From Candidatus Bipolaricaulota bacterium (GTDB taxonomy: Bacteria; Bipolaricaulota; Bipolaricaulia; Bipolaricaulales; Bipolaricaulaceae), in assembly GCA_938083225.1 (NCBI GenBank), contig CALKCH010000016.1, positions 1 through 55,351 of the forward strand: 55,351 nucleotides of DNA, given 5' to 3'. Position 1 is the first letter of the stretch; each line of letters opens with the position of its first letter. The position numbers and the translations under genes were made by a program. This document shows positions 4,687-46,695 of the stretch, piece by piece. The notes under the pieces are model-generated. The model saw nothing but the letters and a program-made list of their open reading frames with translations, made no database searches and was not told the origin of the DNA.

Positions 4687-5622
4687 TCACCTTACTAGAT
4701 CTAACCCGAAAGATATCCGATGCTGAGATGCGAGGTGAGGATGCATTACCAGCGCGTAGTCAAGTGTAAAGAGACCGAATCTCACCCCGAGACCGAAGCT
4801 TGTCATAAGAGCCCCTTCACCGCGTAGTCCAAATCGGACTGCCAACGCTGAGGCGGGATACCACTCGAGGCCTAACCGCCCCCCCTTACCAGCCGCGAAA
4901 TCCGCTAGCAGGATCCAAGAATCGAGAAGAGTGGCCGAGAGCCCAAACGTAATGGCCAGAGACCAATGTTCCTCATGCCCACTTCTATATTTAGTGGGGA
5001 TCTCCACAACGTTCTCCATGATCATTCCCAGCCCGAAAGCAGTTAGAGGCCCAATTTTAGTTCCCTTGCTCGCAGCTCTATAAAAAAGTGAGAAGTCGAA
5101 GGCCCAACCACTCCCACTACCTGGTTCCAGAGTTCGTACTGTATAGAACTTTGCTTTTATTCCGAACCCAACATCCCGAAGGATGGGAATGCTGTGAAGA
5201 CCTAAATCAGCGAGCGAGACGCCGGCTCCAGCCACCACCGTATAGGTACGGTAAGAGAACGAGCCAGTTACGTTGCCCTGCTCGTCGATCTGGGGAACGT
5301 CTCCAAAGTTAAAGAAATGGAGGCCTAGGCCAAGATGGGGCAAGGTCACAGCTATCTGGCCAGCCAGCCCATACCCAAGCCTCACTTCCCCAGAGGAGAG
5401 AGAGGAGACGCTGGTAAGCCCGGCTAATCCTGCTGGGTTGAAGAAAAGCGCGTTGCTATCGTCTGCAAGACCCACGAATGCTCCGCCCAAAGCCAAAGGT
5501 CGAGCCCCCATGCCCAGGTCCAATACGGCAGCAACGTTGGTGTACGACACCGCAAGGCAAGGAAAAGACAGAGATGAGCCGCCGAGGATCATGATCAACC
5601 ACCAACGTCGTCTCCAAAGCAT
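4687..5622 (-). CDS. PorV/PorQ-like outer-membrane beta-barrel protein
   Basis: A signal-like N-terminus is followed by GMGARPLALGGAFVGLADDSNALFFNPAGLAGL, the opening motif I associate with PorV/PorQ-type barrels. An alternating beta-strand pattern runs throughout. A purine-rich AAGGGGG lies 6 nt before the ATG. The gene starts 11 nt after the stop of the giant gene upstream. It has low G+C like that neighbour. Confidence 0.6.
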   Translation of the reverse strand: MLWRRRWWLIMILGGSSLSFPCLAVSYTNVAAVLDLGMGARPLALGGAFVGLADDSNALFFNPAGLAGLTSVSSLSSGEVRLGYGLAGQIAVTLPHLGLGLHFFNFGDVPQIDEQGNVTGSFSYRTYTVVAGAGVSLADLGLHSIPILRDVGFGIKAKFYTVRTLEPGSGSGWAFDFSLFYRAASKGTKIGPLTAFGLGMIMENVVEIPTKYRSGHEEHWSLAITFGLSATLLDSWILLADFAAGKGGRLGLEWYPASALAVRFGLRGEGALMTSFGLGVRFGLFTLDYALVMHPHLASQHRISFGLDLVR

Positions 5623-5633
5623 TGTCTACCCCC

Positions 5634-8600
5634 TTACCGTTGAATCACCATTTTTCCCTGTCCGATGACCTTGCCGTCGCCAACAAGCACATATATGTAT
5701 GGTCCATTGGCCAGCGGAGTGCCAGTTTGATCCACGGGGCGCCATCGACCAACCGGCGGATAGCGCGTAGCTTTGGGGTCAAGGGATATTTCTGCCACTA
5801 ATCGACCGGTTACGTTGTAGATGAGAAGCTTAGCAGACCTCGTTCCCTCAGGGAGTTGGAACCAGAACACACATCCGTCTTCAGGCACGGGGTTTGGGCC
5901 GTGATTGACCGCAGCCCCGGTCCGAAGGGCTGCGAATATCGCGTGAATCGTATGGTCACTTGTTACGTTGACGAACTTGTAAGTGCCCATACGACCCTTC
6001 ATGACGACCTGGTCAAGCACCGATCTCCCGTCCACGAGTACATCGTGAATCACGTAGCCTTCGTCCGGTGTGATGGTGAACGTTTGATCAGCACCGTGGA
6101 CCACTTTGACCGCTCCCGAAGGGACTATTACCCCACCTTTCCCCGCAGTCGCCGTTATCGTGTGTTGCAGTTCCTCCCCCGTAAACTTGCTGCCGCTCCG
6201 GAGCGTAAGCTCGAACACCCCGTCTCCGTCCTGGTCGACCTCGATTGTGACCCCCCTCTCACCACGAGCAAGAGACTCCCAATCAACCTTATATTGATGG
6301 ATAGCTCCAGCCCTAGTATTGACCTCGCGGCTCTCAAATTGAAGAAAATCATCACCGGTTGCACGAGTTAACACCAAATCGTAGGAACCATCTGAACCCC
6401 CAATAACCACGTATCTGTAGGAAGGATCACGCCCAAAAATGATTACAATTTCATCCAAGTACGCAGAATCAGGAATTTCGTTTCGCACAACACCTTCAAC
6501 CAGTCCAGTAACACGGCCGACCGGATCCCACACTTGAAGTGAAGCGGCGCTCTTGAGCTGAGCGTGAATATACTGACTCAATGTACCAGCAAGAGAAAGA
6601 AGTTCGTCATTTGTCAACGGCTTATAACCACCGGCTTCAAGCGTCTTATCATAGTTCTCCCCATAGTACTCCTTCAGTCTAGGAAGCCACGAGCCCACTT
6701 TAGCCGGATATGTTGGCCCTGTGTTATAGCAGCTGACAGCACCAAGAACGCTGTTAGTCTTATCTAGTCCGTATTGCAAAATCCGAAACGCATCCTTCAC
6801 GTTTGCATAGATGCCTTGCGGAGTGTTCCCGTAGTAATCGTGCTTGTACACCATGTCCGCCACATATGCACCATTGTCGTATGCATGGTAATTTAATAAA
6901 CCGCTTCCCCATCCCTTGTTGCAGCCAGCACACGGGAAGACACCACCATGAATCTGCATGACGCCAACCCCACCACTTTTGAGGTTACCCGCTCGTCCAT
7001 GTTCCTGGTCATAGATACGGTTGTCAAAGCCGTATTGAGCAGCGCCTTCCTGGAGTGCGATGGCCATAATGAGTTCTATTGGAAACTTATTGTCCCTCAG
7101 CTTTTTGAAAGAGTTAGAAGGCTGTCCTTTATGTACACGATCACCGCTACTGTAAAGGGATCGCTCTGCACTCTCGTCAAAGTAGTAATGTAATACCGCG
7201 TTTAGGAAAACTTCACGACGGCGGCTTCGATCTTCTAGGTTCTGAGCTTTGGCAACTAGTTCCCGTTGTTCGATACGCCTCAGTATGTTTTTGTCCACCC
7301 AGCCTGTAAGTTCAGGGGGCCAGGTCGAGTCCCTTACCTCCCACCAGGTCACGCCGTCAGCCGTTCTCATATCATTGTAAGTATCGACGACAAGCATTAC
7401 CCAACCATTAGGGGCAAAAATCATGGCCTGTCTTGGCGATGTGTATTTGTCATAAATCGTTACCCCGGACTCAGTTGAGTGAGCTACCTCCACCCAGAAA
7501 ACTTTTGTAGCTACACGAACAAGCACAAAATTCAAAACGACCGTCTGTCCGGCCTCCACCGTTACCCCAGCCTTTGTCTGTGAAAGGTATCCATCTGCAA
7601 CTGCAGTGATGTTATAGGTGCCGGCCGGGACATTGAACGAAAATTGCCCAGAATCGTCGGTAATCGGACAGTAGGTTAACGGATCAGGTTCCAGCAGAAG
7701 CATCGCCCCACTGACTCCTTTCCCTGTGGAGGCATCAACCACTCGCCCAGTAAGCCGACCTGTCACAGGTGTAGTTCCCCGAAGCTTTACGACATCAAAT
7801 CCCAAGGCCCTTATCCCTGTACCGTCATCTGCAACGTGATTGACGAGCGCGAGAAATCCGCCATCCGCTGTAGGCCCCCCTATTACCACGTTGTATCTGG
7901 CATTCGGCGGATTCCAAGGTTCACAGCGCGTTAGCCATTCCCAAAGAATTGTTCCTTGTGCGTCCGTTTTTATCAGGCATCCAGACCCACATGTACTTAG
8001 CTGGGACTCGACCACCTGCCATACCAACTTTGCGCCGCCAAGAACAAATCCACCATCCTCAGCCTGCATTATGGAAAGAAAAGCATAGCAATACCCTTCA
8101 TGCTGGTTAAAGAAAGATTTTTCCCAAATCACGTTGCCAAGGCTATCCATTCGCAGGAGGAAGGACTCAGTAGCCATTCCCCCTCCATCGCCGAGCCGAT
8201 TAGAGAAAACTGCAGCAATACTCCCACCATCACGCGTCGTCCCCAACGCAGCAGCCCTGATATCACATCTTTTCTCTGGAAAGTACTTTTCCCAAACGAT
8301 CTGTCCCATCGAGTTTATTTTTAACAGATACAACAACTCCCGCCCTTCAGAATGAGTTTTCGCAGCAATGATAAACCCTCCGTCTTTAGCTCTTCGAGCA
8401 GAAAGTGCTTCGGCTACACCTAATCCCGAAAAGGCTCTTTGCCAAATCACCGTTCCCTGCGCATCTGTACCGACTACGAAGATGTTAGAAGAGAAGGGCG
8501 CGCCATACGTCCGAGAATTTCCAATAAGAACGAAGCCACCTCCTGGTCTTTCATCAACATAGATCGGATGATCCTCTTCACTCGTGGAAACGTCAATAAT

Positions 8601-8993
8601 ACGCTGCCACTCTTGGTTACCGCGTTCATCGAGCTTAAGCAAGAAAGCGGATCTTGGTTTCTCAGGAGGGCTTGGAGCGACACCTGTGAGTACGCAGCCG
8701 TCATCAGAGGTGAGGCCGATATACTCTCCCCCTTGATTTGCAAAGGTCCTCTCCCATAGCGTATTCCCGTCTGGGCCGATGGCTAGCAAAAACATCCCCT
8801 GTGCTCGGTTACCTACAATCCGATATGACCCATCTTTCATTTGCTGGTATGACGCAATCAAAGCCGGCTCAGAAAAAACCCTTTGCCACTCTACAGAAGG
8901 AGGCTGCTCCGAAGCAAGGCCACCGGCCGAGGCAATGGCGAACAATAACCCTACAGCTGCCCTTCGAACTTTAGATAGGAAAACTTGGGACAT
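5634..8993 (-). CDS. 1119-aa secreted multidomain protein: beta-propeller repeats, CarboxypepD_reg-like domain, SH3-like plus SLT/lysozyme-like domain, InlB B-repeat-like domain, T9SS/FlgD-Ig-type C-terminal domain
   Basis: I place the start at ATG 8993, because AAGGAGGG lies 8 nt upstream and the track's GTG 9002 falls inside that SD. The signal peptide is MSQVFLSKVRRAAVGLLFAIASAGG. About 7 repeats follow of the form DGGF..(x)..LLK.D..G...W. Next comes TGRLTGRVVDASTGKGVSGA...YNITAVADGY. Then ELIMAIALQEGAAQ...GVGVMQI, which fits an SLT catalytic Glu plus the GLMQ-like motif. Then TITATAGKGGVIVPSGAVKVVHGADQTFTITPDEGYVIHDVLVDG. The C-terminus is GPNPVPEDGCVFWFQLPEGTRSAKLLIYNVTGRLVAEI...GPYIYVLV...KMVIQR. 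Confidence 0.85.
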   Translation of the reverse strand: MSQVFLSKVRRAAVGLLFAIASAGGLASEQPPSVEWQRVFSEPALIASYQQMKDGSYRIVGNRAQGMFLLAIGPDGNTLWERTFANQGGEYIGLTSDDGCVLTGVAPSPPEKPRSAFLLKLDERGNQEWQRIIDVSTSEEDHPIYVDERPGGGFVLIGNSRTYGAPFSSNIFVVGTDAQGTVIWQRAFSGLGVAEALSARRAKDGGFIIAAKTHSEGRELLYLLKINSMGQIVWEKYFPEKRCDIRAAALGTTRDGGSIAAVFSNRLGDGGGMATESFLLRMDSLGNVIWEKSFFNQHEGYCYAFLSIMQAEDGGFVLGGAKLVWQVVESQLSTCGSGCLIKTDAQGTILWEWLTRCEPWNPPNARYNVVIGGPTADGGFLALVNHVADDGTGIRALGFDVVKLRGTTPVTGRLTGRVVDASTGKGVSGAMLLLEPDPLTYCPITDDSGQFSFNVPAGTYNITAVADGYLSQTKAGVTVEAGQTVVLNFVLVRVATKVFWVEVAHSTESGVTIYDKYTSPRQAMIFAPNGWVMLVVDTYNDMRTADGVTWWEVRDSTWPPELTGWVDKNILRRIEQRELVAKAQNLEDRSRRREVFLNAVLHYYFDESAERSLYSSGDRVHKGQPSNSFKKLRDNKFPIELIMAIALQEGAAQYGFDNRIYDQEHGRAGNLKSGGVGVMQIHGGVFPCAGCNKGWGSGLLNYHAYDNGAYVADMVYKHDYYGNTPQGIYANVKDAFRILQYGLDKTNSVLGAVSCYNTGPTYPAKVGSWLPRLKEYYGENYDKTLEAGGYKPLTNDELLSLAGTLSQYIHAQLKSAASLQVWDPVGRVTGLVEGVVRNEIPDSAYLDEIVIIFGRDPSYRYVVIGGSDGSYDLVLTRATGDDFLQFESREVNTRAGAIHQYKVDWESLARGERGVTIEVDQDGDGVFELTLRSGSKFTGEELQHTITATAGKGGVIVPSGAVKVVHGADQTFTITPDEGYVIHDVLVDGRSVLDQVVMKGRMGTYKFVNVTSDHTIHAIFAALRTGAAVNHGPNPVPEDGCVFWFQLPEGTRSAKLLIYNVTGRLVAEISLDPKATRYPPVGRWRPVDQTGTPLANGPYIYVLVGDGKVIGQGKMVIQR

Positions 8994-9350
8994 GTAGATC
9001 ACCCTCCTTTGCGACCAGGGCCGACGTGTGCCGCAATGTGATCAACGAGAGCGCTGACAATACTGCAAGAGCCTAGCACCAACTTGGAACCCGAAGATTT
9101 CTATCCTAGATACGTCAACCGTCTCTTCGGACTCCAGAGGCTCGAACGGAGATATGCCAAGCACCAGCCCGCTCCTTCTTTTGACCTTATACAATATATC
9201 TTTTACTCCTTGCTGTCAAGTTTTGTATGGCATGCCTACCAGAACACAAGGGCCTTTGTCTCACTTATGACAGAGCCAAAAGCTCTTTTCGGCCGAGTTA
9301 AATAACCAACTCAAAAAACACTTATGGCAAAGAAAACCTGGCCAAGGATA

Positions 9351-9384: not shown

Positions 9385-9550
9385 TGAGGTAACCGGGGGA
9401 GCTCCGAGAGGGGCTGAGAGGAGGTAAAAAGCCTCGACCCCTTGAACCTGATCCGGGTAATGCCGGCGGAGGGAAGGTTACCGCGCTGGCCCCGCTCAGG
9501 TAGGGGCAAACGCTAAGCCCCCTCCCTTGGTTGCCGCCAAGGAGGGGTTT
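9385..9550 (+). promoter_or_regulatory. TPP (THI-box) riboswitch with SD-sequestering expression platform
   Basis: P1 pairs GGTAACC (9388-9394) with GGTTACC (9476-9482). The core is GGGGCTGAGAGG...CCCTTGAACCTGATCCGGGTAATGCCGGCGGAGGGAAG, which matches the THI-element consensus (CUGAGA ... ACCUGAUCCGGGUAAUGCCGGCG.AGGGA). Downstream, CCCCTCCCTTGG (about 9519-9530) can pair with CCAAGGAGGGG (9537-9547), the SD of the first gene. Confidence 0.9.
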
Positions 9551-9554
9551 TCTC

Positions 9555-10184
9555 GTGCCGCGCACGGTGTTGATCCTGGCAGGCGGCGTGGCCTCCCCTG
9601 AGGAGGCTCGCGAGGCTGCTTGTGCCGCGGATTTCGTTCTCGCCGTTGATGGCGGATTCGACCTGGCCCAGAAGGCTGGGTTGACCGTGGACCTCCTCTT
9701 GGGCGACCTGGATTCCCTTTCTTCCCCTCTTCCTCCCACCCTTTCTGTGCGGCGGGTGCCCAGGGAAAAAGACGCCACCGACCTCGAGCTCGCGTTGGAT
9801 CACGCGGTCTCTTTGGGTCCGGAAAAGATCTTGGTCGTGGGAGCTTTTGGTGCCCGCCTCGATCACACCCTGGCCAACGCCAACCTCCTGGAGAAGTATG
9901 ACCTCCCGGTCGTGCTCTTCCACGACCGGGCCCGCGTGTACCTCGTGGTGGACCAGGTGGAGCTCGCAGGTGAACCTGGAGATCTCGTGTCTCTCCTCCC
10001 CCTGACCGCGGAGGTGCGGGGCGTCACCACCTGGGGCCTGCGCTATGCCCTCACCGACGGCGTCCTCCTGCGGGCCTCTACCCGGGGCGTGTCCAACGAA
10101 GTGGTGGCCACGCCGTTCGGCGTCAGCCTGCGCGAGGGAAAGCTCCTCCTCATCCATATGCCCAAAGGAGGTGGGCCATCATGA
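9555..10184 (+). CDS. thiN: thiamine pyrophosphokinase (thiamine diphosphokinase)
   Basis: GTG 9555 lies 7 nt after AAGGAGGGG, and the track start at 9531 would lie in the riboswitch platform. Motifs: ILAGG, AVDGG, GDLDS, KDATD, GAFGARLDH, GLRYAL. Confidence 0.85.
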   Translation: MPRTVLILAGGVASPEEAREAACAADFVLAVDGGFDLAQKAGLTVDLLLGDLDSLSSPLPPTLSVRRVPREKDATDLELALDHAVSLGPEKILVVGAFGARLDHTLANANLLEKYDLPVVLFHDRARVYLVVDQVELAGEPGDLVSLLPLTAEVRGVTTWGLRYALTDGVLLRASTRGVSNEVVATPFGVSLREGKLLLIHMPKGGGPS

Positions 10185-11194
10185 GGAAGTTTTTGGCGGT
10201 GTTGTGGGCAGTCTTTGCTCTGTGGGGAGCGGCTGAGGAACTGGTGGTCTACACCTATGATTCCTTTGTGTCCTGGGGGCCGGCCTTGGCCATCCAGGAG
10301 AAGTTCGAGGCCCTGTTCCCTGGGGTGACCCTTCGCTGGGTGGCGGTGGGCGACTCCTCGGAGATGCTCTCCCGCCTCATCGCCGAGCTCCAGTTGGGCC
10401 TGCCCACTGCTGATGTGTTCCTGGGCCTGGCGGACGTGGAACTCCCTCGCGCTTTAGCCCACAACGTCTTCCAGCCCTACGATCCCCAGCGGATCCCCAA
10501 CCTTGCGGATGTGCCGGCCGAGCTCATCTTCGACCCCACCGGGCACGTCCTCCCCTACGACCACGGCTACGTGACCTTCGTGTACGACTCCGAGCTTTTG
10601 CCCGAGGAGCTCGTGCCCCAAGGCCTGGAGGACCTCTTGCGGCCGGAGCTGCGCGGCAAGATCATCGTCACTGACCCGCGCACCTCTTCTCCAGGCCTTT
10701 CCTTCCTGCTTTGGACGATCGCCCACTTCGGGGAAGGGTGGCCCGATTACTGGCGGAAACTCTTGCCCAACCTGCTGGCCATCACCAAGGGTTGGTCTGA
10801 GGCTTACGACATGTTCCTGGCGGGGGAGGCCCCCATCGTCCTCTCCTACTCCACAGACACAGCTTACTCCTACATCGAATACGGTTCCCTGCGGTATCGG
10901 GCCATCACGCTCGGGGGCGAGGCCTTCCGCCAGGTGGAGGGGATGGGCATCGTGAGGAACACGAAGGAGCTCGAGCTGGCCCACGCCTTCTTGAACCTCG
11001 TCCTTTCCGTAGAGATCCAGGAGCTCATGCCCACCACACAGTGGATGTTCCCGGTGAACGCGCAAGCCAAGCTCCCTCCGGGCTACGAGTACGCGGTGAT
11101 CCCGGAAAAGCCAGTCTTCTTGGAACCGGAGTTGGTGGGCGAAAAGCTCGAGGAGTGGCTGAACCAGTGGCAAAAGCTGTTGATCGGCGGCTGA
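10181..11194 (+). CDS. thiB: thiamine ABC transporter substrate-binding protein
   Basis: ATGA overlap with thiN. Signal peptide MRKFLAVLWAVFALWGA. Type-II periplasmic binding protein of ThiB/TbpA size (337 aa). It lies inside a TPP-riboswitch-controlled operon. Confidence 0.8.
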   Translation: MRKFLAVLWAVFALWGAAEELVVYTYDSFVSWGPALAIQEKFEALFPGVTLRWVAVGDSSEMLSRLIAELQLGLPTADVFLGLADVELPRALAHNVFQPYDPQRIPNLADVPAELIFDPTGHVLPYDHGYVTFVYDSELLPEELVPQGLEDLLRPELRGKIIVTDPRTSSPGLSFLLWTIAHFGEGWPDYWRKLLPNLLAITKGWSEAYDMFLAGEAPIVLSYSTDTAYSYIEYGSLRYRAITLGGEAFRQVEGMGIVRNTKELELAHAFLNLVLSVEIQELMPTTQWMFPVNAQAKLPPGYEYAVIPEKPVFLEPELVGEKLEEWLNQWQKLLIGG

Positions 11195-12855
11195 TCCGGA
11201 GAAGGGGGGCAAGCCTGCTTTGGGCCGGCTTGCCCCTTTTCGTTTTGGCCACGGCCTTCTTTCTTCCCTTGGCCAACGTGCTCCTATTGGGCCTGCGGCT
11301 GGAGGACCAGTGGACCCTGGCCCGGGTGCGCGCGGTCCTCGCTGACCCCTATGTGCGCCACCTCTTCTCCTTCACCGCTTGGCAAGCGTTTCTTTCCACT
11401 CTTCTCAGCTTCGTCCTGGGCTTTCCTTTGGGGTGGTTCCTCACGCGGTACCGTTTCCCGGGAAAGAGCCTGGCCCGGGCTTTCACCCTGGCGCCGTTCG
11501 TGCTCCCGCCCATCACCGTGGCCCTCGGCTTTTTCCTGTTCTTCGGCCACACGGGCTACCTCAACCATGCCCTCCAAAAAATTTTGAGACTCCGGGATCC
11601 GCCGTTGAAGCTGCTTTATTCTCTTTGGGCCATCGTGCTTGCCCATGCCTTTTACAATGCACCTGTGTTTGCCCGCTTCGTCCATGCCGCATGGAGCTCG
11701 CTTGACCCCGCGTTGGAAGAGGCTTGCGCCGTTTTGGGGGTCCGGAGGTTCCGGGCCTTTCTCACCGTGACCCTACCGCTCCTGCTGCCCGCGATCTTCT
11801 CCGCCGCGGCCCTGGTCTTTGTCCTGTGCTTTCTCTCTTTCGCCATCCCCCTGTCGCTGGGCGGGGCCCGCTACGCCACAGTGGAGGTGGGGGTTTATTT
11901 GTACGCGCGGGTGTACGTGGACCTGCCGCGGGCCGCGGCCCTGGGCCTGGTCCAGCTCCTGGTGACCCTGGGTTTGGCCTACCTTTACGTGCGGGGCGGC
12001 GGGCGGTGGTCCGCCCCCCAGGAAAGGCTGCGTCCCCTCCCCACCTTGCCTTTCCCCTCCCGTGCGGCCCATGGGCTTTGGCTCCTTTGGCTTTTGGGAA
12101 GCGCTGTCCTCTTTTTCGGCCCCATCGGTTCCGTGGTCGCCGATTCCTTCACCCGACCTTTGGGCGGCCGCCCCGCGGGCTTGGGCTGGTATCGCTTCAT
12201 CTTTTCCCCCGAGCACAACCCGTTCATCGGCACCTCGCCCTTGGGGAGCGTTCGGGTGAGCTTGGAGGTGGCCGGCTTCTCCACCCTGTTGGCGTTGGCC
12301 TTGGGGCTAGGGGTAAGCGGTGCCTTGCGGGTCCTGCGCTCTAGGGCGCTGGAGGCCCTGCTCATGGCGCCCCTGGCCGTGTCCTCCGTGGTCCTGGGGC
12401 TGGCTCTGCTTCTGGCCTTTCACCGTCCGCCTTTTGTTTATCTCTCCGAGAAGCACGCGCTCATTCTCGCTCATGCTCTTTTGTTCTACCCCTTTGTGGT
12501 GCGGATCGTGCGGCCGATCTGGGAGGGGTTGGCGCCGGGTTGGGTGGAGGCCGCCCGGGTGCTGGGAGCAAGCCGCCTGCGTGCCTTCCTCACCGTGGAG
12601 GCGCCGCTTCTGGCCCAGGCCCTGCTTGTGGCCGGGGCCTTCAGCCTCGCCCTCTCCCTGGGCGAGATGACCGCCGCGGCCATGCTCTCCCGGGGAGAGC
12701 TTGTGACCCTGCCCCTGGCCATCTACCGTTTCCTTTCGGCGCGACGGTTCGGTGCCGCCTCCGCCATGGCCTCCCTCCTCATCCTCATCACCGTGGCCGC
12801 GGTGATCGTTTGGGAATGGCTGGGCGAACGGAGCCTGCGCCATGGCCAAGCTTGA
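11167..12855 (+). CDS. thiP: thiamine ABC transporter permease (two fused TMD halves)
   Basis: About 12 predicted TM segments, with two EAA-like loops ([22 protein letters not shown] and [21 protein letters not shown]). The start is uncertain. I chose GTG 11167 because the track start at 11041 would overlap thiB by about 150 nt. Confidence 0.75.
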
Positions 12856-13873
12856 GGTGGAAAACCTAACGAAGCGCTTTGGCCCCGTGGTGGCCGTGGC
12901 GGGAGTTTCTTTTTCCGTAGACCCCGGGGAAATTCTTGTGCTCCTGGGTCCCTCAGGGTGCGGGAAGACCACGGTTCTTCGGTGCATTGCGGGTTTGGAG
13001 CACCCCGATGCCGGGGATGTACGGTTGGATGGCCGCTCGCTCCTTGGGCTTCCGCCTGAGCGGCGCGGTGTGGGACTGGTGTTCCAGCATTACGCGCTCT
13101 TTCCCCACCTTTCTGTGGCCGCCAACGTGGCCTATGGGCTTCGCCACGGAAGGCTTCGTCTTTCCCGAACGCTGCGGCAAAAGAGGGTGGCGGAGCTTCT
13201 CGCTCTGGTGGGGCTTTCGGGTTATGAGCGGCGCAAGCCCCACGAGCTCTCGGAGGGGCAGAAGCAGCGTGTGGCTCTGGCCCGGGCCCTGGCGGTGGAG
13301 CCCCAGCTGCTTCTCTTGGACGAGCCCCTGTCTGCGTTGGATGCGGCTTTGAGGATGGAGCTACGTCGGGAGCTCCGGCGCATTCTGAAAGAAAGAAACA
13401 CCACCTCTGTGTACGTCACGCACGACCAGACGGAGGCCCTGGCCTTGGCTGATCGGGTGGGGGTGATGCGTGAAGGCAAGCTGGAGCAGGTGGATCGCCC
13501 TGAGGATCTCTATGAGCGGCCGAAGGCCTCGTTTGTGGCGCAATTTTTGGGCCGGGCCAACCTGTGGCCGGCCCGCGTGGTGCGCCTCGAGCCCCCCCGC
13601 GCCTGGGTGGAGGTGGCCGGCGTGACGGTGGAAGCGGAGGTTCTGGCCCCTCCCCAGGGCGAGGAGGCGCTTCTCTTTTTCCGGCCGGAGTGGGTGGAGC
13701 TTGGTCGCGGCCCATTCCGGGCGGAGCTCAGGGAGGCCGAGTACCTGGGCGACCACTGGGAGGCGCGGGGGAGGGTCCAGGGTCTTCCGCTTGTTTTGCA
13801 TACCCCTACCATTCCCGCAAATCCCCTGAATTTCCAGATCAAGCGAGCGTTCCTGCTTCCCACAGGGCACTAG
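12842..13873 (+). CDS. thiQ: ABC transporter ATP-binding protein with C-terminal TOBE-like extension
   Basis: Walker [11 protein letters not shown]-loop, signature [15 protein letters not shown], Walker [13 protein letters not shown], and H-loop VTHDQ. It overlaps the thiP end by 14 nt. Confidence 0.75.
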
Positions 13874-40565: not shown

Positions 40566-41072
40566 TCAGAAGAAAATGACCCAAACCAGGGCGGCCAATC
40601 CCAGGATGACACCGGTGAGGCCGAGCACCACGCCCAGCTGTGCTTTCTGGGCCACTTCTCCACCCTGCCCCACCGACTGTTGGAGAGCGTTGACCCGTGC
40701 GGACAGGGTGGAGATATCCGCTCGCAGGGTGCTGAGGTCTGAGGAGAGGCTACGCATTTGGTTTTCCAAAGAGGTGAGACGGGGGGTGAGATCAGTAGCT
40801 GCGGAGATTTTGGCCTCGATGTTCTTTATGGCCCGGTCCAGCCAAACCGCGGCATCATAGCGGAGCAGCGGCTGATCGCCCATGAACTGCCCGCTGGCCG
40901 TGGGCACAAGGATCCCCCGCGTGAGCAGGTTTTGCACAGAGGAATAGGCCGGGTGGCTCTTCGGCACGTCAATGAACGAGCCTCCGGTTATACCAGCGTC
41001 GGCCAGGCCAGGGGTAAGTCCCCAAACAGACACTAACCCCAACGCAACCACCGCTAAAAGTAATCTGCGCAT
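40566..41072 (-). CDS. SLH-domain / coiled-coil protein with C-terminal transmembrane anchor
   Basis: A signal peptide is followed by FIDVPKSHPAYSSVQNLLTRGILVP...LLRYDAAVWLDRAI (SLH pattern). A heptad-rich segment comes next (LTSLENQMRSLSSDLSTLRADISTLSARVNALQQSV). The C-terminal TM segment is LGVVLGLTGVILGLAALVWVIFF. Confidence 0.65.
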   Translation of the reverse strand: MRRLLLAVVALGLVSVWGLTPGLADAGITGGSFIDVPKSHPAYSSVQNLLTRGILVPTASGQFMGDQPLLRYDAAVWLDRAIKNIEAKISAATDLTPRLTSLENQMRSLSSDLSTLRADISTLSARVNALQQSVGQGGEVAQKAQLGVVLGLTGVILGLAALVWVIFF

Positions 41073-41698: not shown

Positions 41699-41958
41699 GG
41701 TGTCCCTCCTTCCCTGCCCATCATGTTAAGCTGGGAAAGGACTGTGGTCAGCTCCTCAATTTTTACGGCGACACTCCATAGAGCTGGCTGCGCTCGCGAA
41801 TCGGTGTCTCCCCAAAGAACTTGCAACGCGCCGGTTCTCCCGGTGGCGAAGGGGAAACTTTGGGCACAAGGGGAAGGTAGCCCATATTACCTGGGGAGAG
41901 GACATTAGCCCTGGCTCCGATCAGACCAGGACCGTAGAGTTTGTGGATGGTGATGAGC

Positions 41959-42708
41959 ATGAGATGGCGCATAGCGCTGGTCCTTTTGGCTTGGGCCACG
42001 GGAGGATTGGCCGAAGTGGTGACCCGCGGGCCAATCCTCATCCATTCCGTGGAAGACCTTCTTGGTCTGGCTTCGGGTTTGGGCACCATAGCTTCACCGT
42101 TCGTCATCGAGGGGCTGCGCGTGGACGCCGAGGGTGAACCCTTTGGCATCCTCATCAGTAACACCAGTGTTCCCCTCATCTTGCGCAACCTCGAGATCTA
42201 CGGAGCTTCTGTAGCAGCGATAAGGCTTCAAAACGTGCAAAACCTGGTGATGGAAAACGTGCTGGTCCGCGGATCGCTCACGGGGATCCTCGTGGGAGGA
42301 AGCAAAAACATTGTGGTGAAAGAAACCCGTGTGGAAAACTGCGCGGACGGGATCCGCCTCATGTTCTCCGCGGAAATTACGCTACACAAGGTGGGCGTAA
42401 GGAAGACAGGGGTGGGAATCTGGCTACAAGGAACTCGCGCTTCCACCATCACGGCCTCGGTGATTGAACTGAACGGACTCGGCCTCCTTTTAGAACTCGA
42501 GAGCACGGGAAACATCGTGTCGAAGAACGCGTTCCTCGGTAATCACGTGCACGCCCAGTCTTGCGGGAAGAACCAGTTCGACGACGGCCAAAACGGCAAT
42601 TTTTGGGAGGGTTTTTCGGCAACGGACAAGGACGGCGATGGCATATTCGACGAGGCTTATCTCATTGGCCCAGATGCAGACCGATTCCCGCTGTGTTCCC
42701 TCCCGTGA
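41959..42708 (+). CDS. secreted right-handed parallel beta-helix repeat (NosD/CASH-like) protein
   Basis: Signal peptide MRWRIALVLLAWATGGLAEV. Repeated ~22-aa units follow (N.xV.xxxV.G...GI.L). The C-terminus contains DKDGDGIFDEAY. The start among several in-frame ATG/GTG codons (41941-41959) is uncertain. Confidence 0.65.
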   Translation: MRWRIALVLLAWATGGLAEVVTRGPILIHSVEDLLGLASGLGTIASPFVIEGLRVDAEGEPFGILISNTSVPLILRNLEIYGASVAAIRLQNVQNLVMENVLVRGSLTGILVGGSKNIVVKETRVENCADGIRLMFSAEITLHKVGVRKTGVGIWLQGTRASTITASVIELNGLGLLLELESTGNIVSKNAFLGNHVHAQSCGKNQFDDGQNGNFWEGFSATDKDGDGIFDEAYLIGPDADRFPLCSLP

Positions 42709-43136
42709 GGGCCGTGGATTTCCCGAGCCCAGGCCCGCAGCACCCACCAGACCAGGACTAGGCCGGCCATCAGAGCCCAAAAATTAAGGGAAAAGCGGAG
42801 GAAAGAGACACAGACGCCGAGGGCTACGCCTGTGCCCACCACTCCGACCGACCACAAAAACCCGTACCCACGAATACGCCAACTCGGATGGTCCCAGGCG
42901 AAGAGGGCCATCCCCAGCACGCCGAGCCCGCCCAAGAGATTCCCACTCCAAGCGCAAAGGACTGCCAGGGCCACTAATCCCAGGAATCCCAAGACCAGGA
43001 AGGCTCTGCGTTTGAGCCAAATCCCGCTGGCCCAAAGGAGGGGCAGGGCCAAGACGGAGGTCCAGACCGGATGAGCCGGCCGACCCTGGCCCAGCCAGCC
43101 CAAGACCAAAGCGAAAAGGAGAACGAGGAGGCTCAT
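42657..43136 (-). CDS. hypothetical integral membrane protein (about 5 TM)
   Basis: ATGA overlap with the DUF58 gene stop. Strongly hydrophobic, with no recognised motif. Confidence 0.5.
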   Translation of the reverse strand: MSLLVLLFALVLGWLGQGRPAHPVWTSVLALPLLWASGIWLKRRAFLVLGFLGLVALAVLCAWSGNLLGGLGVLGMALFAWDHPSWRIRGYGFLWSVGVVGTGVALGVCVSFLRFSLNFWALMAGLVLVWWVLRAWAREIHGPHGREHSGNRSASGPMR

Positions 43137-44398
43137 ACGTACACCCCGGGCCACAGTCTCCGCAAAAGCGAAGCCAGAGGACGCCTAACATCCCATACCA
43201 CCACGAAAACTCTGCCTCGCCGCAGCCGGCGAAGAAGGGTCCAGCGTTCCAGAGCCAGGATTTTCCGAGCCATCTCGGCCTCAGGAGTGTCCTGGAATTC
43301 CCGGAGCTCCAGAGAGCTTAGGTCCGGGAGAATCACGGCCACCCGGTATCCCCGGGCCACAAGTTTTCCCAGTGTCTCCTCGTCGCCAGGAATGAGGGGG
43401 GACACGAAAAGGAGGAGCGAACCCGCGGGCAAAAGCCGGGTGGGAAGGTGGTCCAGTTCCCCGAAGATTTCGGACTCCCCCAGCTCGGCCTTAGCCAATT
43501 CCCGAAGGATTCGTTCCCCGTGGCGCCGGCCGTAGCCCGGGAAGACCCAGTCCAGATAAGCACCGTACTTGAGGAGAGCCACCCGGTGTCCTTGGCGCAG
43601 GTAGAATTGGGCCAGGGCTGCAGCCGCTCGCACCGCATGGTCAAACAGTTCTTTGGCGAAGCCTCGATAAGCGCGCGCCCGCACATCCAGTACCACCGCC
43701 ACCTCCGCCACCCGCTCCTCCTCAAATTCCACCACCACGGGCTCGTCCCTGCGAGCCATGGCCTTCCACGCCAAGCGCCGGATCTCCTCCCCAGGCCGGT
43801 ATTCCCGTACGCCATGGAATTCCAAACCTATTCCGCCTCGGTGGGCGCGGACTGTTCCCGGCATGGCCAGCGTGCGCCGCGCAGGCAATTCCAAACGGGA
43901 GAGATCCTCATACCGGGGAAGAACCCAAATCTCTGAAGGGCACGGGAGTTCTAGCCGCCAAGGGGCCAAACCCAGAGGGTCGCGCACTTCGACCGTCACC
44001 CCCGGGAGCCGATGGACGCCGCGGGCTGGCTGGACTTCATAGGAGATGACCAGGGATTGGCTGGGGCGAAGGGCAGCCGCCGTATGGGGTTGGCCCCTCA
44101 CCACCGCAAATCCCGTATAAGGACCATCACGCACGACTAGATCGAGCTTCCTCTTCCCTTGGTTTTCCACTTCCACTTGGACCTGCACCGAACCGCCCTC
44201 CACCAACCGCCGCGGCTCCACCACACGTCGCACGCGCAAAAGGCCCCGTGGATCTGGGGGAGCGAAAGCCAGCCCTATTGTGAGATGCCAGGCCACCGGG
44301 ATAGCCAAGACCAAAAGAGCCGGGTGCCGCAGGGCTAGACCCGAGCCGAGGAGGAGAAGGAGGACCAAAAATTCCCACGAAGCTTTGGGACTGATCAT
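43133..44398 (-). CDS. DUF58 domain protein (MoxR-associated, vWA-like)
   Basis: ATGA overlap with the moxR stop. N-terminal TM pair. DUF58 core VREYRPGEEIRRLAWKAMARRDEPVVVEFEEER. Confidence 0.75.
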   Translation of the reverse strand: MISPKASWEFLVLLLLLGSGLALRHPALLVLAIPVAWHLTIGLAFAPPDPRGLLRVRRVVEPRRLVEGGSVQVQVEVENQGKRKLDLVVRDGPYTGFAVVRGQPHTAAALRPSQSLVISYEVQPARGVHRLPGVTVEVRDPLGLAPWRLELPCPSEIWVLPRYEDLSRLELPARRTLAMPGTVRAHRGGIGLEFHGVREYRPGEEIRRLAWKAMARRDEPVVVEFEEERVAEVAVVLDVRARAYRGFAKELFDHAVRAAAALAQFYLRQGHRVALLKYGAYLDWVFPGYGRRHGERILRELAKAELGESEIFGELDHLPTRLLPAGSLLLFVSPLIPGDEETLGKLVARGYRVAVILPDLSSLELREFQDTPEAEMARKILALERWTLLRRLRRGRVFVVVWDVRRPLASLLRRLWPGVYV

Positions 44399-45348
44399 GC
44401 CGGGACTTTTGGCACTGGCGTTCGAGCCAGGATTTCCAGCACGATGTCTTCGGTCCGCACGTCCCGCGTCCAAAGTTCCGGGGAGAGGATGAGGCGGTGG
44501 CTTAGGGCCGAAACAGCCACAGTCTTCACATCGTCGGGGGTGACGAAGTCTCGGCCATGCAAAGCGGCCCAGGCCCGGCTCATCCTCAACAGGGCCAGGG
44601 TGCCGCGCGGGCTCGCGCCCAACCCCAGGGCCTCGTGCTTCCGCGTGCGAGCCACGATGTCGGCCATGTACCGGAGGAGGTCGGGATCCACGAACACTTC
44701 CTCTAGGGCAGCCCGCATGGCCAGCACTTCTTCCGGAGAAGAGACGGTGCGCACCGAGACCTCTTCGCTCTTGCGGGAGATACGGCGCCGCAGGATCTCC
44801 ACCTCCTCCGTCGTAGTGGGATAGCCAAAGCGCACCCGCACCAAAAATCGGTCCACCTGGGCCTCGGGAAGGGGGAAAGTTCCCTCGTACTCGATGGGGT
44901 TCTGTGTGGCCAGAACCACAAAGGGTTGGGGGAGAGCATAGGTTGTGCCCTCCACCGTGACCTGGTTTTCCTGCATGGCTTCAAGGAGGGCGGATTGGGT
45001 CTTGGGCGTAGCGCGGTTGATCTCGTCCGCAAGCAGAATTTGGGTGAAGATCGGGCCCGCTTGGAACACGAATTTTCCCTCTTCGCGGCGGAACACATGG
45101 GTTCCCACCACGTCAGCGGGAAGAAGATCCGGAGTGAATTGGATGCGGCGAAATGTGAGCCCAAGCGCCTGAGCCAAACAGCGCGCGGCGAGCGTCTTCG
45201 CTAGCCCTGGATAATCCTCGATGAGCACGTGACCTCCGGCCAGAATGGCCGCGAGAATCAGGGTGAGGGGATCGTGTTTCCCCACGATGACTTTCTCTAC
45301 TTCGGACAGGATTTCTTCCGCCCGCTTTCTCAACTCCGCGATGGTCAA
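44395..45348 (-). CDS. MoxR-family AAA+ ATPase
   Basis: HVLIEDYPGLAKTLAARCLA (Walker A variant), LLADEINRATPKTQSALLEAMQE (Walker B / sensor), and LGASPRG. The TTG start is preceded by GAAGGAGG. Confidence 0.9.
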   Translation of the reverse strand: MTIAELRKRAEEILSEVEKVIVGKHDPLTLILAAILAGGHVLIEDYPGLAKTLAARCLAQALGLTFRRIQFTPDLLPADVVGTHVFRREEGKFVFQAGPIFTQILLADEINRATPKTQSALLEAMQENQVTVEGTTYALPQPFVVLATQNPIEYEGTFPLPEAQVDRFLVRVRFGYPTTTEEVEILRRRISRKSEEVSVRTVSSPEEVLAMRAALEEVFVDPDLLRYMADIVARTRKHEALGLGASPRGTLALLRMSRAWAALHGRDFVTPDDVKTVAVSALSHRLILSPELWTRDVRTEDIVLEILARTPVPKVPA

Positions 45349-45794
45349 AGTGTGCCTCCTTCTGCGTACCGCGTGAGCTCCTCCAGAGCTTCCCTCAAGG
45401 CGGCCAAGAAATCGCCGTGATCTTCGCCGCGCAGGAACCGACCCAGGACGTTATCCCCGGGCCAGCGGCCGCTCCACAGCTCCTGCCACGCCCGCTCGGG
45501 AGGAATGAGTTCCCGTTCAGTGCGGAGAGCTACGAGGATACGGACTAGCCGGTGACGTACTTGGTGGCGCGCCCAGGGAGAATAGCGTGCCCGCCGGAGA
45601 AGAAGCACCAGTTCCCGCGCGGGAAAGGACGGCTCTCTCTTCTTTCTTGGCCGCCCCTCCTCCTTGGGGAGGCGAAAAAGGCGCATGCTCAGGAAAACCA
45701 AAACGAGAACAGCGAAAATCCAGACAAGCCCTTGGGGCAAGGAATCGAGGAAGAGGAAAATGCGCAGGGCCGGATCGACGAAGAAGTCCCGCAC
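45345..45794 (-). CDS. hypothetical membrane-anchored protein
   Basis: One N-terminal TM segment followed by an Arg-rich helical region. TTGA overlap with moxR. Confidence 0.5.
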   Translation of the reverse strand: MRDFFVDPALRIFLFLDSLPQGLVWIFAVLVLVFLSMRLFRLPKEEGRPRKKREPSFPARELVLLLRRARYSPWARHQVRHRLVRILVALRTERELIPPERAWQELWSGRWPGDNVLGRFLRGEDHGDFLAALREALEELTRYAEGGTL

Positions 45795-45867
45795 CAGCTC
45801 AGGAAAATTCAGAAGTAGCGCCAGGAAAAACGCGGCTAGGCTCAGGACGAGAAGAGCTCTTTTGACC

Positions 45868-46695
45868 CTAGGCGTAAGCTTTTTCCAGGGCGGCCAGGGC
45901 CAAAAGGGCCTTTTCTCGACGAGACTCGCTTTCTTTGTGTCCGTAGCGTACCTCCTCGAAAAGCTCGGTTAAAAGCTCGATGGCCTCGTGCTTGAACCCG
46001 AGCCTGGCCAAATTCTCCGCGAACTCCCGGGGGGTAAAACTGGGGCGGTCGGCGGTGCCCGCGCGGGCCGAGAGGATCTCTACCATGCGCATCCACGCCC
46101 AAAGGACCACGTCCAACACAGAAGCTCCCCGTTGGAGCTCGGCAGCTGCTTCCCTGGCGATCTCCTGAATGGCTTTCCTCTTACGTTTTTGGCCCATAAC
46201 ACTGAGGAGGCGGGGGCCTAGCCACAGAGCTAAGGCCAGGCTGGCAGCCACCGCACCGAGATAAACAGCCCAATTCGGCGGCCGGGGAACAATTTCGTTC
46301 TCCTCGTTGGCTTCGCTGGACCCGCTTGCGCCAGGCCGGGCGCCGCTGGGCTCCTCCGGATATAGTGCGGTGAACCTGTGGGCTAAAAGCTGCCAAAGGG
46401 CAAGGATTAAGGCCAAAGACAAAAGGAGACGCAGAAGGTGGCGGCGGAAAGTGCGGGAGAAGAGACAGCCAACCACCACCAACACCAACCCTCCGAAAAG
46501 GACGATGCGGAGAAAATCTACAATCCAGCCTATCGGCACAGGATTTTCCCCGGTGGAAAGGCCGAAGGGAGCGAGGGAGCCCCCGGACGGGAAAGGTCGT
46601 CCGCCGCGGAATGCAGTGCCGCTCAGGCCCCCGGCTAAAAAGGCCAGGACCACCAGCAAGAACCCTCCAAACAGTGCTAGCCGCGTGGTGCGCAT
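45868..46695 (-). CDS. DUF4129-like membrane protein
   Basis: Multiple TM segments. The C-terminus FTPREFAENLARLGFKHEAIELLTELFEEVRYGHKE resembles the DUF4129 signature. The start lies 3 nt after the aspS stop. Confidence 0.6.
   Translation of the reverse strand: MRTTRLALFGGFLLVVLAFLAGGLSGTAFRGGRPFPSGGSLAPFGLSTGENPVPIGWIVDFLRIVLFGGLVLVVVGCLFSRTFRRHLLRLLLSLALILALWQLLAHRFTALYPEEPSGARPGASGSSEANEENEIVPRPPNWAVYLGAVAASLALALWLGPRLLSVMGQKRKRKAIQEIAREAAAELQRGASVLDVVLWAWMRMVEILSARAGTADRPSFTPREFAENLARLGFKHEAIELLTELFEEVRYGHKESESRREKALLALAALEKAYA

Follow-up and report, generated by a model that had tools for sequence, protein, structure and literature searches.

A type A-like C-terminal domain encoded beside its own PorV/PorQ-family barrel in Candidatus Bipolaricaulota: a candidate cargo and outer-membrane anchor pair

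Two adjacent minus-strand genes in a stretch of DNA from Candidatus Bipolaricaulota bacterium (GenBank assembly GCA_938083225.1, contig CALKCH010000016.1, positions 1 to 55,351; the window) encode a large multidomain protein, here called the cargo, and, directly downstream of it, a putative outer-membrane β-barrel. The cargo ends in a domain that resembles the type A C-terminal domains (CTDs) of type IX secretion systems (T9SS), and the barrel appears to be a divergent member of the PorV/PorQ superfamily. We have found that such tails and barrels are encoded together and diverge together, whereas the passengers that precede the tail are exchanged, and that the arrangement is an obligate module. 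On balance, we favour the interpretation that the cargo and barrel genes make up a cognate cargo/anchor module in which the barrel serves as a private outer-membrane anchor for the retained CTD of its neighbour, tethering the passenger to the toga-like outer membrane of these bacteria.

Results

Tail and barrel as the conserved unit

A scan of a metagenome collection with the cargo tail recovered 80 loci, and at every one of the 75 with at least 300 nt of sequence after the stop codon a barrel gene was present on the same strand, about 10–100 nt downstream. Likewise, every metagenome-assembled genome (MAG) context fetched for relatives of the barrel showed, immediately upstream, a gene for a large protein with a nearly identical tail. 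The passengers carried by these upstream proteins varied, examples being DUF7948/SBBP/PKD (1723 aa), β-helix/NosD/PKD/PGAP1 (1291 aa) and VWA (1491 aa) proteins. Among 56 unique complete pairs the median identity was 8% for the passenger, 55% for the tail and 46% for the barrel, and tail identity tracked barrel identity (Spearman 0.87), as it also did among the 1340 comparisons in which the passengers were unrelated. Because the passenger identities diverge while tail and barrel co-vary, we conclude that the conserved, co-evolving unit is the tail plus the barrel and that passengers are exchanged. An earlier note on this DNA, made from the sequence alone, had considered a cargo travelling with a dedicated shuttle to be an unusual arrangement; the pair is real, but its generality was undersold, given its presence at 75 of 75 loci and, as described below, in many phyla.

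One subfamily (L156–L169), the tails of which end in TDTYTGKGKVFINK at the stop codon and share 36% identity with the window tail, is an example of tail–barrel co-divergence, these tails always being accompanied by a barrel that has diverged to a corresponding extent (E near 1e-27; in the main group, 1e-130 to 1e-166). Two tandem cargo–barrel pairs (L143 and L145) are located within about 8 kb of each other on the 25-kb contig Ga0307427_1000485, and five or six distinct pairs were present in individual metagenomes; for these reasons a single genome or population probably carries several.

The genome scan with the barrel, which covered one genome per species and gene contexts of 10 kb on either side, detected distant relatives (25–33% identity) in Zixibacteria, Ignavibacteria, Calditrichia, Latescibacteria, Balneolales, Hydrogenedentota, Elusimicrobia, Firestonebacteria, Margulisbacteria and others. 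At roughly 40 of the 84 loci examined the adjoining upstream gene encodes a protein of 500–2600 aa with a related sequence at its C-terminus (G.Y.Y...K.[AV]V[IV][KR] before the stop codon), and the paired barrels from the FCB (Fibrobacteres–Chlorobi–Bacteroidetes) group clear the PorV/PorQ family cutoff (171–221 bits), though not the PorV and PorQ equivalog cutoffs. The occurrence of paired distant relatives across many phyla indicates that a cargo with a private barrel is a widespread layout, and in the literature we found no paper describing it.

Pairs of the same KMVIQR type, with 37–55% barrel identity, were also observed in MAGs labelled Thermotogota or ‘uncultured Thermotogae’ (L008/L011, L010, L042 and L049); either the sister phylum has the module too or the bins belong to Bipolaricaulota and carry the wrong label. 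An Elusimicrobia MAG contains a single open reading frame (ORF; L065:4578-6401) that combines the PorV/PorQ N-terminal motif, a match to the PorP/SprF barrel family and a C-terminal LysM domain, and the gene that precedes this ORF encodes a protein of at least 1526 aa with a CTD. Its composition hints that PorV/PorQ and PorP/SprF barrels may be related and that some paired barrels may also bind peptidoglycan.

Resemblance of the cargo tail to type A CTDs

The C-terminal residues of the cargo, GPNPVPEDGCVFWFQLPEGTRSAKLLIYNVTGRLVAEISLDP...LANGPYIYVLVGDGKVIGQGKMVIQR followed by the stop codon, read exactly as the earlier note had quoted them. The pattern is unlikely to have arisen by chance, and the assignment in the note of the tail to the Por-secretion C-terminal sorting/FlgD-Ig-like type was upheld by matches across the family and by predicted structure. 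Over its last 88 residues the window tail matches the hidden Markov models TIGR04183 (E=4e-4, 20.3 bits; cutoff 23) and Pfam FlgD_ig (E=2e-4); PF18962 gave no match, nor did the type B model TIGR04131, and CHU_C was reached at E=0.07 only. Within the family the signal is stronger: 24 of 28 non-redundant tails match TIGR04183 (E<=0.01; best 5.7e-10), 15 match the PorU model over its C-terminal (CTD) region, and PorZ is matched by one. Conversely, a profile built from the family tails recognises the tails of Bacteroidota proteins named by NCBI as ‘T9SS type A sorting domain-containing’ (e.g. P0184 at 1e-8).

An AlphaFold2 model of the 95-aa tail, for which the alignment was built from database proteins, has a predicted local distance difference test (pLDDT) score of 95. 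Its best matches in the PDB, with template-modelling (TM) scores of 0.55–0.73, are the NucA CTD in the Flavobacterium johnsoniae T9SS translocon (8glk_D) and the PorU CTD (6za2), and generic Ig and FN3 folds rank below these two. As in type A CTDs, therefore, a β-sandwich with the predicted fold of solved CTDs occupies the extreme C-terminus of a protein with a Sec signal. Conservation of the PNP and G.Y motifs and of the GKMVIQR lysine extends to an alignment that takes in Bacteroidota type A CTDs; this lysine (K90 of the tail) is near-invariant, being at least 90% conserved among the family members and also when CTD proteins of Bacteroidota are aligned with them. In solved translocon complexes a single conserved CTD lysine contacts PorV (PMC10994853), and K90, judging from its place in the alignment, may be its equivalent. 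Taken together, the model matches and the predicted fold identify the tail as a probable T9SS type A-like/FlgD-Ig-like β-sandwich.

The barrel as a divergent relative of PorV and PorQ

The signal peptide of the barrel is followed by LGMGARPLALGGAFVGLADDSNALFFNPAGLA, the opening motif named in the earlier note, which had proposed a PorV/PorQ-type barrel. That proposal held: the window barrel matches the NCBIfam PorV/PorQ family model (PorV_fam, NF033709; E=2.6e-18, 66.7 bits; cutoff 90) as well as PorQ (2.8e-12), PorV2 (1.4e-8) and PorV (0.009), and PorV_fam, PorQ and PorV2 are each matched by all 48 aligned relatives. We found no literature description of the PorV2 model. One close relative (L014) clears the PorV/PorQ family cutoff at 91.2 bits and another, P0047, is named ‘PorV/PorQ family protein’ by NCBI. 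No Pfam model, Toluene_X/FadL included, matches the window barrel at E<=1.

In the AlphaFold2 model of the barrel (pLDDT 85, predicted TM score 0.78) a helical N-terminal segment precedes 14 strands. PorV in the F. johnsoniae translocon (8gl6_F) is the best PDB match, with a TM score of 0.70 and E=1e-12, followed by TodX, FadL and the FadL-like BamG at 0.5–0.6, and a profile search of PDB sequences likewise ranks PorV first, weakly (E=0.044). The barrel falls far below the equivalog cutoffs for PorV (NF033710; 15.2 bits, cutoff 250) and PorQ (NF033711; 46.4 bits, cutoff 220). Because family models match, PorV is the top fold match and the equivalog cutoffs are missed, we assign it as a probable divergent member of the PorV/PorQ superfamily that is an ortholog of neither protein.

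The most conserved segment of the family, the N-terminal plug motif, aligns with PorV residues ~30–66. In the model the odd-numbered loops, DEQGN (113–117), RSGHEEHW (213–220) and HPHLAS (294–299) among them, are better conserved (0.74) than the even-numbered turns (0.51) and than most of the strands, which range from about 0.5 to 0.8 and are mostly near 0.6. By the standard rule that outer-membrane barrels have a periplasmic N-terminus, the odd-numbered loops would face outward. Conserved external loops are uncommon in outer-membrane proteins; in the present model they would suit a docking surface for the equally conserved tail.

Three other assignments were considered for the barrel and its cargo. 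A FadL-type transporter was rejected, there being no Pfam Toluene_X/FadL match and a lower fold similarity to FadL and TodX than to PorV; the possibility raised in the earlier note, that the barrel might prove to be a FadL or other-family porin, gives way accordingly to membership of the PorV/PorQ superfamily. A two-partner or autotransporter (type V) system was rejected as there are no Omp85 or POTRA domains, the strands number 14 and the barrel is encoded by a separate gene. As for a PorP/SprF barrel with a type B CTD, a private barrel gene does adjoin the cargo gene, 11 nt away in the window and in all 75 loci, but neither window protein matches TIGR03519 (PorP/SprF) or a type B model at E<=1, and none of the 48 barrels matches TIGR03519.

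Organization of the locus and the cargo passenger

The positions of the features are given in Table 1.

Table 1. Features of the cargo–barrel locus (positions are those of the window)
Feature	Position	Strand	Basis or remark
Sigma-70-like promoter match, TTGACA-17-TATTGT	9191..9219	-	~200 nt upstream of cargo start; consensus match only
Ribosome-binding site of cargo gene, AAAGGAGGG	9002..9010	-	Read directly
Cargo gene, 1119 aa	5634..8993	-	ORF reaches GTG 9002
CarboxypepD_reg Ig-like domain, aa 417–494 (1122-aa numbering)	7521..7754	-	Pfam PF13620, E=7e-17
C-terminal domain, 95 aa, T9SS type A-like β-sandwich; PNP motif, G-P-Y motif, conserved Lys of GKMVIQR	5637..5921	-	Model, AlphaFold2 and PDB fold matches
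11-nt intergenic spacer, GGGGGTAGACA, with purine-rich ribosome-binding site of barrel gene	5623..5633	-	Read directly
PorV/PorQ-family outer-membrane barrel, 311 aa	4687..5622	-	Signal peptide, conserved N-terminal plug segment, 14 predicted β-strands
N-terminal plug motif of barrel, aa 29–71, NVAAVLDLGMGARPLALGGAFVGLADDSNALFFNPAGLAGLTS	5410..5538	-	Mean column conservation 0.80; most conserved family segment

The giant ORF (5634..9002) opens at a GTG that falls within the ribosome-binding site itself. The true start is almost certainly the ATG at 8993, as this codon is preceded by that site and the resulting length equals that of a database copy (P0121, 1119 aa). The cargo stop codon is the TAA at 5636–5634 and the barrel ATG is at 5622, 11 nt past it, so that the spacing and the purine-rich ribosome-binding site ascribed to the second gene were confirmed. 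The promoter and terminator scan found no terminator downstream of the barrel gene, and promoter-type matches in the region were no more numerous than in shuffled sequence.

From its N-terminus, the cargo consists of a Sec-type signal peptide (MSQVFLSKVRRAAVGLLFAIASAGGLA, read from the sequence), β-propeller-like SBBP-type repeats, the CarboxypepD_reg domain, a centre of ~440 aa, an InlB-B-repeat-like domain and the C-terminal sorting/anchor domain. A search of PDB sequences with the cargo and with its centre returned the CarboxypepD_reg domain only. Within the centre, which has no assigned family, a lytic-transglycosylase (SLT) match surrounds the motif GVMQI...CYNTGP (~6700–6800, minus strand, about aa 735–770 of the cargo); as this match is weak and below the cutoff (E=0.022), we claim no activity for the passenger.

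Genomic context

The earlier note had also suggested that the pair is horizontally mobile, and for this we obtained moderate support. The GC content at third codon positions is 0.49–0.54 across the pair (4687–8993), against 0.65–0.8 in the neighbouring genes, and local GC dips to 50–55%. Neither window protein turned up in the assembly index, and a 99% identical contig (L001) supplied the gene context for the window pair; the closest orthologous pair (63% and 57% identity) is in a different context, beside a DDE transposase (DDE_Tnp_1), and other pairs adjoin ParE/RelB and PIN/Phd toxin–antitoxin genes. These features suggest that the pair is island-like or mobile.

No match to a T9SS core gene or family was found among the ORFs scanned across the 55-kb contig, SprA/Sov, PorKLMN and PorU being among the genes not found, which agrees with the earlier remark that no other T9SS genes lie nearby; nor was a core gene found in the flanks of the other pairs. 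The rest of the contig is occupied by housekeeping genes: a thiamine operon behind a thiamine pyrophosphate riboswitch, KsgA, Suf, GatB, AspRS, a pyrophosphatase, an AddA-like helicase, MoxR/DUF58 and ABC transporters. In keeping with the host, the GatB encoded there shares 72–82% identity with proteins recorded under the names Candidatus Bipolaricaulaceae, Bipolaricaulota or Acetothermia. The riboswitch (9385–9492, plus strand; Rfam RF00059, 75 bits, E=5.7e-14) is divergent from the cargo gene and precedes a gene for thiamine pyrophosphokinase (9531–10184) and an operon for a thiamine-type ABC transporter (10181–13873).

Two further observations concern the envelope. A 168-aa ORF (40566–41072, minus strand) weakly matches two models, the ‘iron uptake porin’ NF033921 over its N-terminal part and the S-layer model NF040788, and might encode an S-layer homology-type envelope protein relevant to tethering of the toga. 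A gene for a short NosD/β-helix protein (41941–42708, plus strand) adjoins a minus-strand cluster encoding DUF58, a MoxR AAA+ ATPase and DUF4129 (the whole spanning 41941–46695 of the window). Sets of DUF58, MoxR and DUF4129 genes are common, poorly understood and envelope-associated.

Discussion

Our current working hypothesis is that the barrel anchors the tail of the protein encoded just upstream of it. Since both proteins have N-terminal signal peptides, both would be exported by Sec; within the toga-like outer membrane the 311-aa protein would then fold as a PorV/PorQ-type barrel of 14 strands, and its unusually conserved loops on one face would bind the β-sandwich CTD of its neighbour. 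The tail would be retained, rather than cleaved and the protein transferred to lipopolysaccharide (LPS), and would thereby tether the large multidomain passenger non-covalently to the outer membrane. As regards the host, Bipolaricaulota are reported to have a Thermotoga-type Omp-α/Omp-β tether (bioRxiv 10.1101/2021.05.31.446380), and the first cultured strain of the phylum has a toga-like outer membrane and an S-layer (bioRxiv 10.1101/2025.11.21.689855). The phylum being diderm in this way, an outer membrane is available for the barrel, and the doubt expressed in the earlier note, that the genome might lack one, is removed. The authors of the closed Acetothermia genome Ran1 reported outer-membrane markers but neither LPS genes nor adhesins (PMC6092417). 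Because no LPS genes were reported in Ran1, covalent anchoring to anionic LPS (A-LPS) in the manner of Porphyromonas is unlikely, the acceptor probably being absent from the host.

Several points weigh against this hypothesis. Both window proteins score below the curated cutoffs of the models that they match best (20.3 against 23 bits for the tail and TIGR04183, 66.7 against 90 bits for the barrel), and neighbouring genes that are inherited together would be expected to co-diverge to some extent in any case. Physical binding of tail to barrel is something that we infer, and the outward orientation of the conserved loops comes from applying the periplasmic-N-terminus rule to a predicted model. 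In the canonical T9SS, moreover, over half of the CTD surface that is buried lies against SprA and not against PorV (PMC10994853), a partner unaccounted for here. Finally, for a passenger of more than 1000 aa to cross the outer membrane a route is required, and we identified none; it might cross by way of an undetected translocon or by means of the pair itself.

The suggestion in the earlier note that the pair could represent a self-contained surface-attachment module is plausible. In a bolder form, which we regard as tentative and on the doubtful side, the pair would be a T9SS-independent and self-sufficient means of outer-membrane display: a type A-like tail and a private PorV-family barrel would suffice to bring giant proteins to the LPS-free, toga-like outer membrane of Bipolaricaulota and of other non-FCB phyla, and the combination of carrier and tag would be an ancient core around which the Bacteroidota T9SS was later built.

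When considering these interpretations, it is important to ask whether the cargo may instead be an ordinary T9SS substrate with a specialised shuttle. A full T9SS (SprA/Sov, PorK/L/M/N, PorU and PorZ) would then be encoded elsewhere in the genome, and the PorV-like carrier would dock on its translocon, as type B CTDs use PorP/SprF. The tail indeed keeps all the hallmarks of type A, including the candidate PorV-contacting lysine; the same pairing occurs in the FCB group, the lineage for which a T9SS is reported (in Zixibacteria, Ignavibacteria, Calditrichia, Balneolales and one MAG of Cytophagia), where the barrels reach the 171–221 bits mentioned above; and cognate shuttles are already known, since adjacent barrels that anchor CTD proteins have been documented for SprB–SprF and PG1035–PorP (PMC9143113, PMC12618676). 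We nonetheless consider this explanation unlikely, as reviews confine the T9SS to Bacteroidota and the FCB group (PMC7463736, PMC10202324, PMC12398890), the literature that we found on Bipolaricaulota or Acetothermia together with T9SS or PorV amounts to incidental co-mentions, no core gene was detected in the 55-kb contig or in the flanks of the other pairs, and the model proposed for Ran1 has Sec only, with no adhesin and no further secretion machinery (PMC6092417).

The strict 1:1 pairing, the persistence and diversification of the pair in a phylum without a known T9SS, and its behaviour as a portable cassette, found in varied contexts near insertion sequences and toxin–antitoxin genes, would also suit a self-contained form of two-partner secretion, with the barrel as both translocator and anchor, threading or escorting its neighbour across the outer membrane during folding assisted by the β-barrel assembly machinery (BAM). 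This seems to us distinctly unlikely. A 14-strand FadL-type barrel with an N-terminal plug would be too narrow for folded β-propeller or β-helix passengers, no POTRA or Omp85 features were found in it, and PorV and BamG bind their partners via loops; we know of no FadL-family protein that translocates proteins.

The need for a translocon would disappear altogether if the passenger stayed in the enlarged periplasm of the toga with its tail docked on the barrel. The large periplasmic space of toga envelopes has been proposed to host polymer degradation (bioRxiv 10.1101/2025.11.21.689855), and the weak lytic-transglycosylase-like motif of the passenger would suit a periplasmic target. We rate such a periplasmic tether as very unlikely, however, because in solved T9SS complexes the CTD binds extracellular PorV loops (PMC10994853), the conserved loops of the present barrel are the odd-numbered, presumably extracellular ones, and PKD, VWA, β-helix and SBBP-propeller domains are typical of surface proteins and adhesins. 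That the adjacency is meaningless, a FadL-like small-molecule channel merely lying beside a generic Ig-like tail, is scarcely credible: FadL and TodX structures are significant fold matches too and Ig-like folds are common, but the pairing is invariant, co-divergence persists despite swapped passengers, PorV is the top fold match of a barrel whose only family matches are to PorV/PorQ models (Toluene_X/FadL not among them), and T9SS CTDs are the top matches of the tail.

The cognate cargo/anchor interpretation bears on the current view of the T9SS, in which only Bacteroidota and their FCB relatives have the system and one PorV serves every type A tail; the locus departs from both. Here each type A-like tail appears to have a private PorV/PorQ-family barrel, at a ratio of 1:1, and the host belongs to a deep-branching phylum that neighbours Thermotogota and has an outer membrane reportedly lacking LPS. 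Either outcome would be new, namely a T9SS unrecognised until now in these bacteria or a tag and barrel that work without one. Genome surveys of the phylum found no adhesins, and the pairs are its first concrete candidates for proteins associated with the surface or the toga; they also supply a simple sequence rule for finding the surface proteome: a tail ending in LANGPY.YVL..DGKVIGQGKMVIQR, followed by a barrel gene. Because a cultured strain, J31, exists, these predictions are testable.

Among known systems, the closest parallels are the PorZ–PorQ and PorU–PorV pairs of the attachment complex of the Porphyromonas gingivalis T9SS, in which a type A-like C-terminal β-sandwich is retained on a 14-strand barrel of the PorV/PorQ family. 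The genes porU and porV are adjacent. The resemblance extends to the tails, more than half of which match the PorU CTD region (one matches PorZ), and to the PorU CTD as a top structural match. The present cargoes differ in being diverse adhesin- or enzyme-like passengers, not a sortase or its partner, each with one barrel of its own that is not an ortholog of PorV or PorQ, in a host phylum that is outside the FCB group and reported to be without LPS genes.

Type B CTDs with PorP/SprF barrels offer a similar genetic logic, the cargo gene being linked to a private barrel that is needed for, or mediates, CTD anchorage, with several such pairs in a genome; the tail described here is type A-like, however, and its barrel matches PorV/PorQ models. 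The type A CTDs of Flavobacterium, by contrast, reportedly have a single PorV in common (PMC12618676). With PorV itself (PDB 6H3I, 8GL6) the barrel shares the 14-strand FadL-type fold (TM score 0.70) and the N-terminal motif G.GAR..G.G.A......D......NPA, but it is ~90 residues shorter, with short loops, 15% identity and a PDB profile E value of 0.044, and it is encoded 1:1 with its cargo, whereas PorV is encoded once per genome and works with SprA, a partner not known in this phylum. BamG, a subunit of the BAM complex in Bacteroidota (PDB 9HJM; PMC12578637) and the fifth-ranked fold match, is likewise a FadL-family barrel that binds a surface protein via its extracellular loops, yet its TM score is 0.48, there is no sequence-family match and its partner bears no CTD. 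By analogy with these systems, which are known only from Bacteroidota and related bacteria, the locus has the appearance of a version with one cargo and one anchor.

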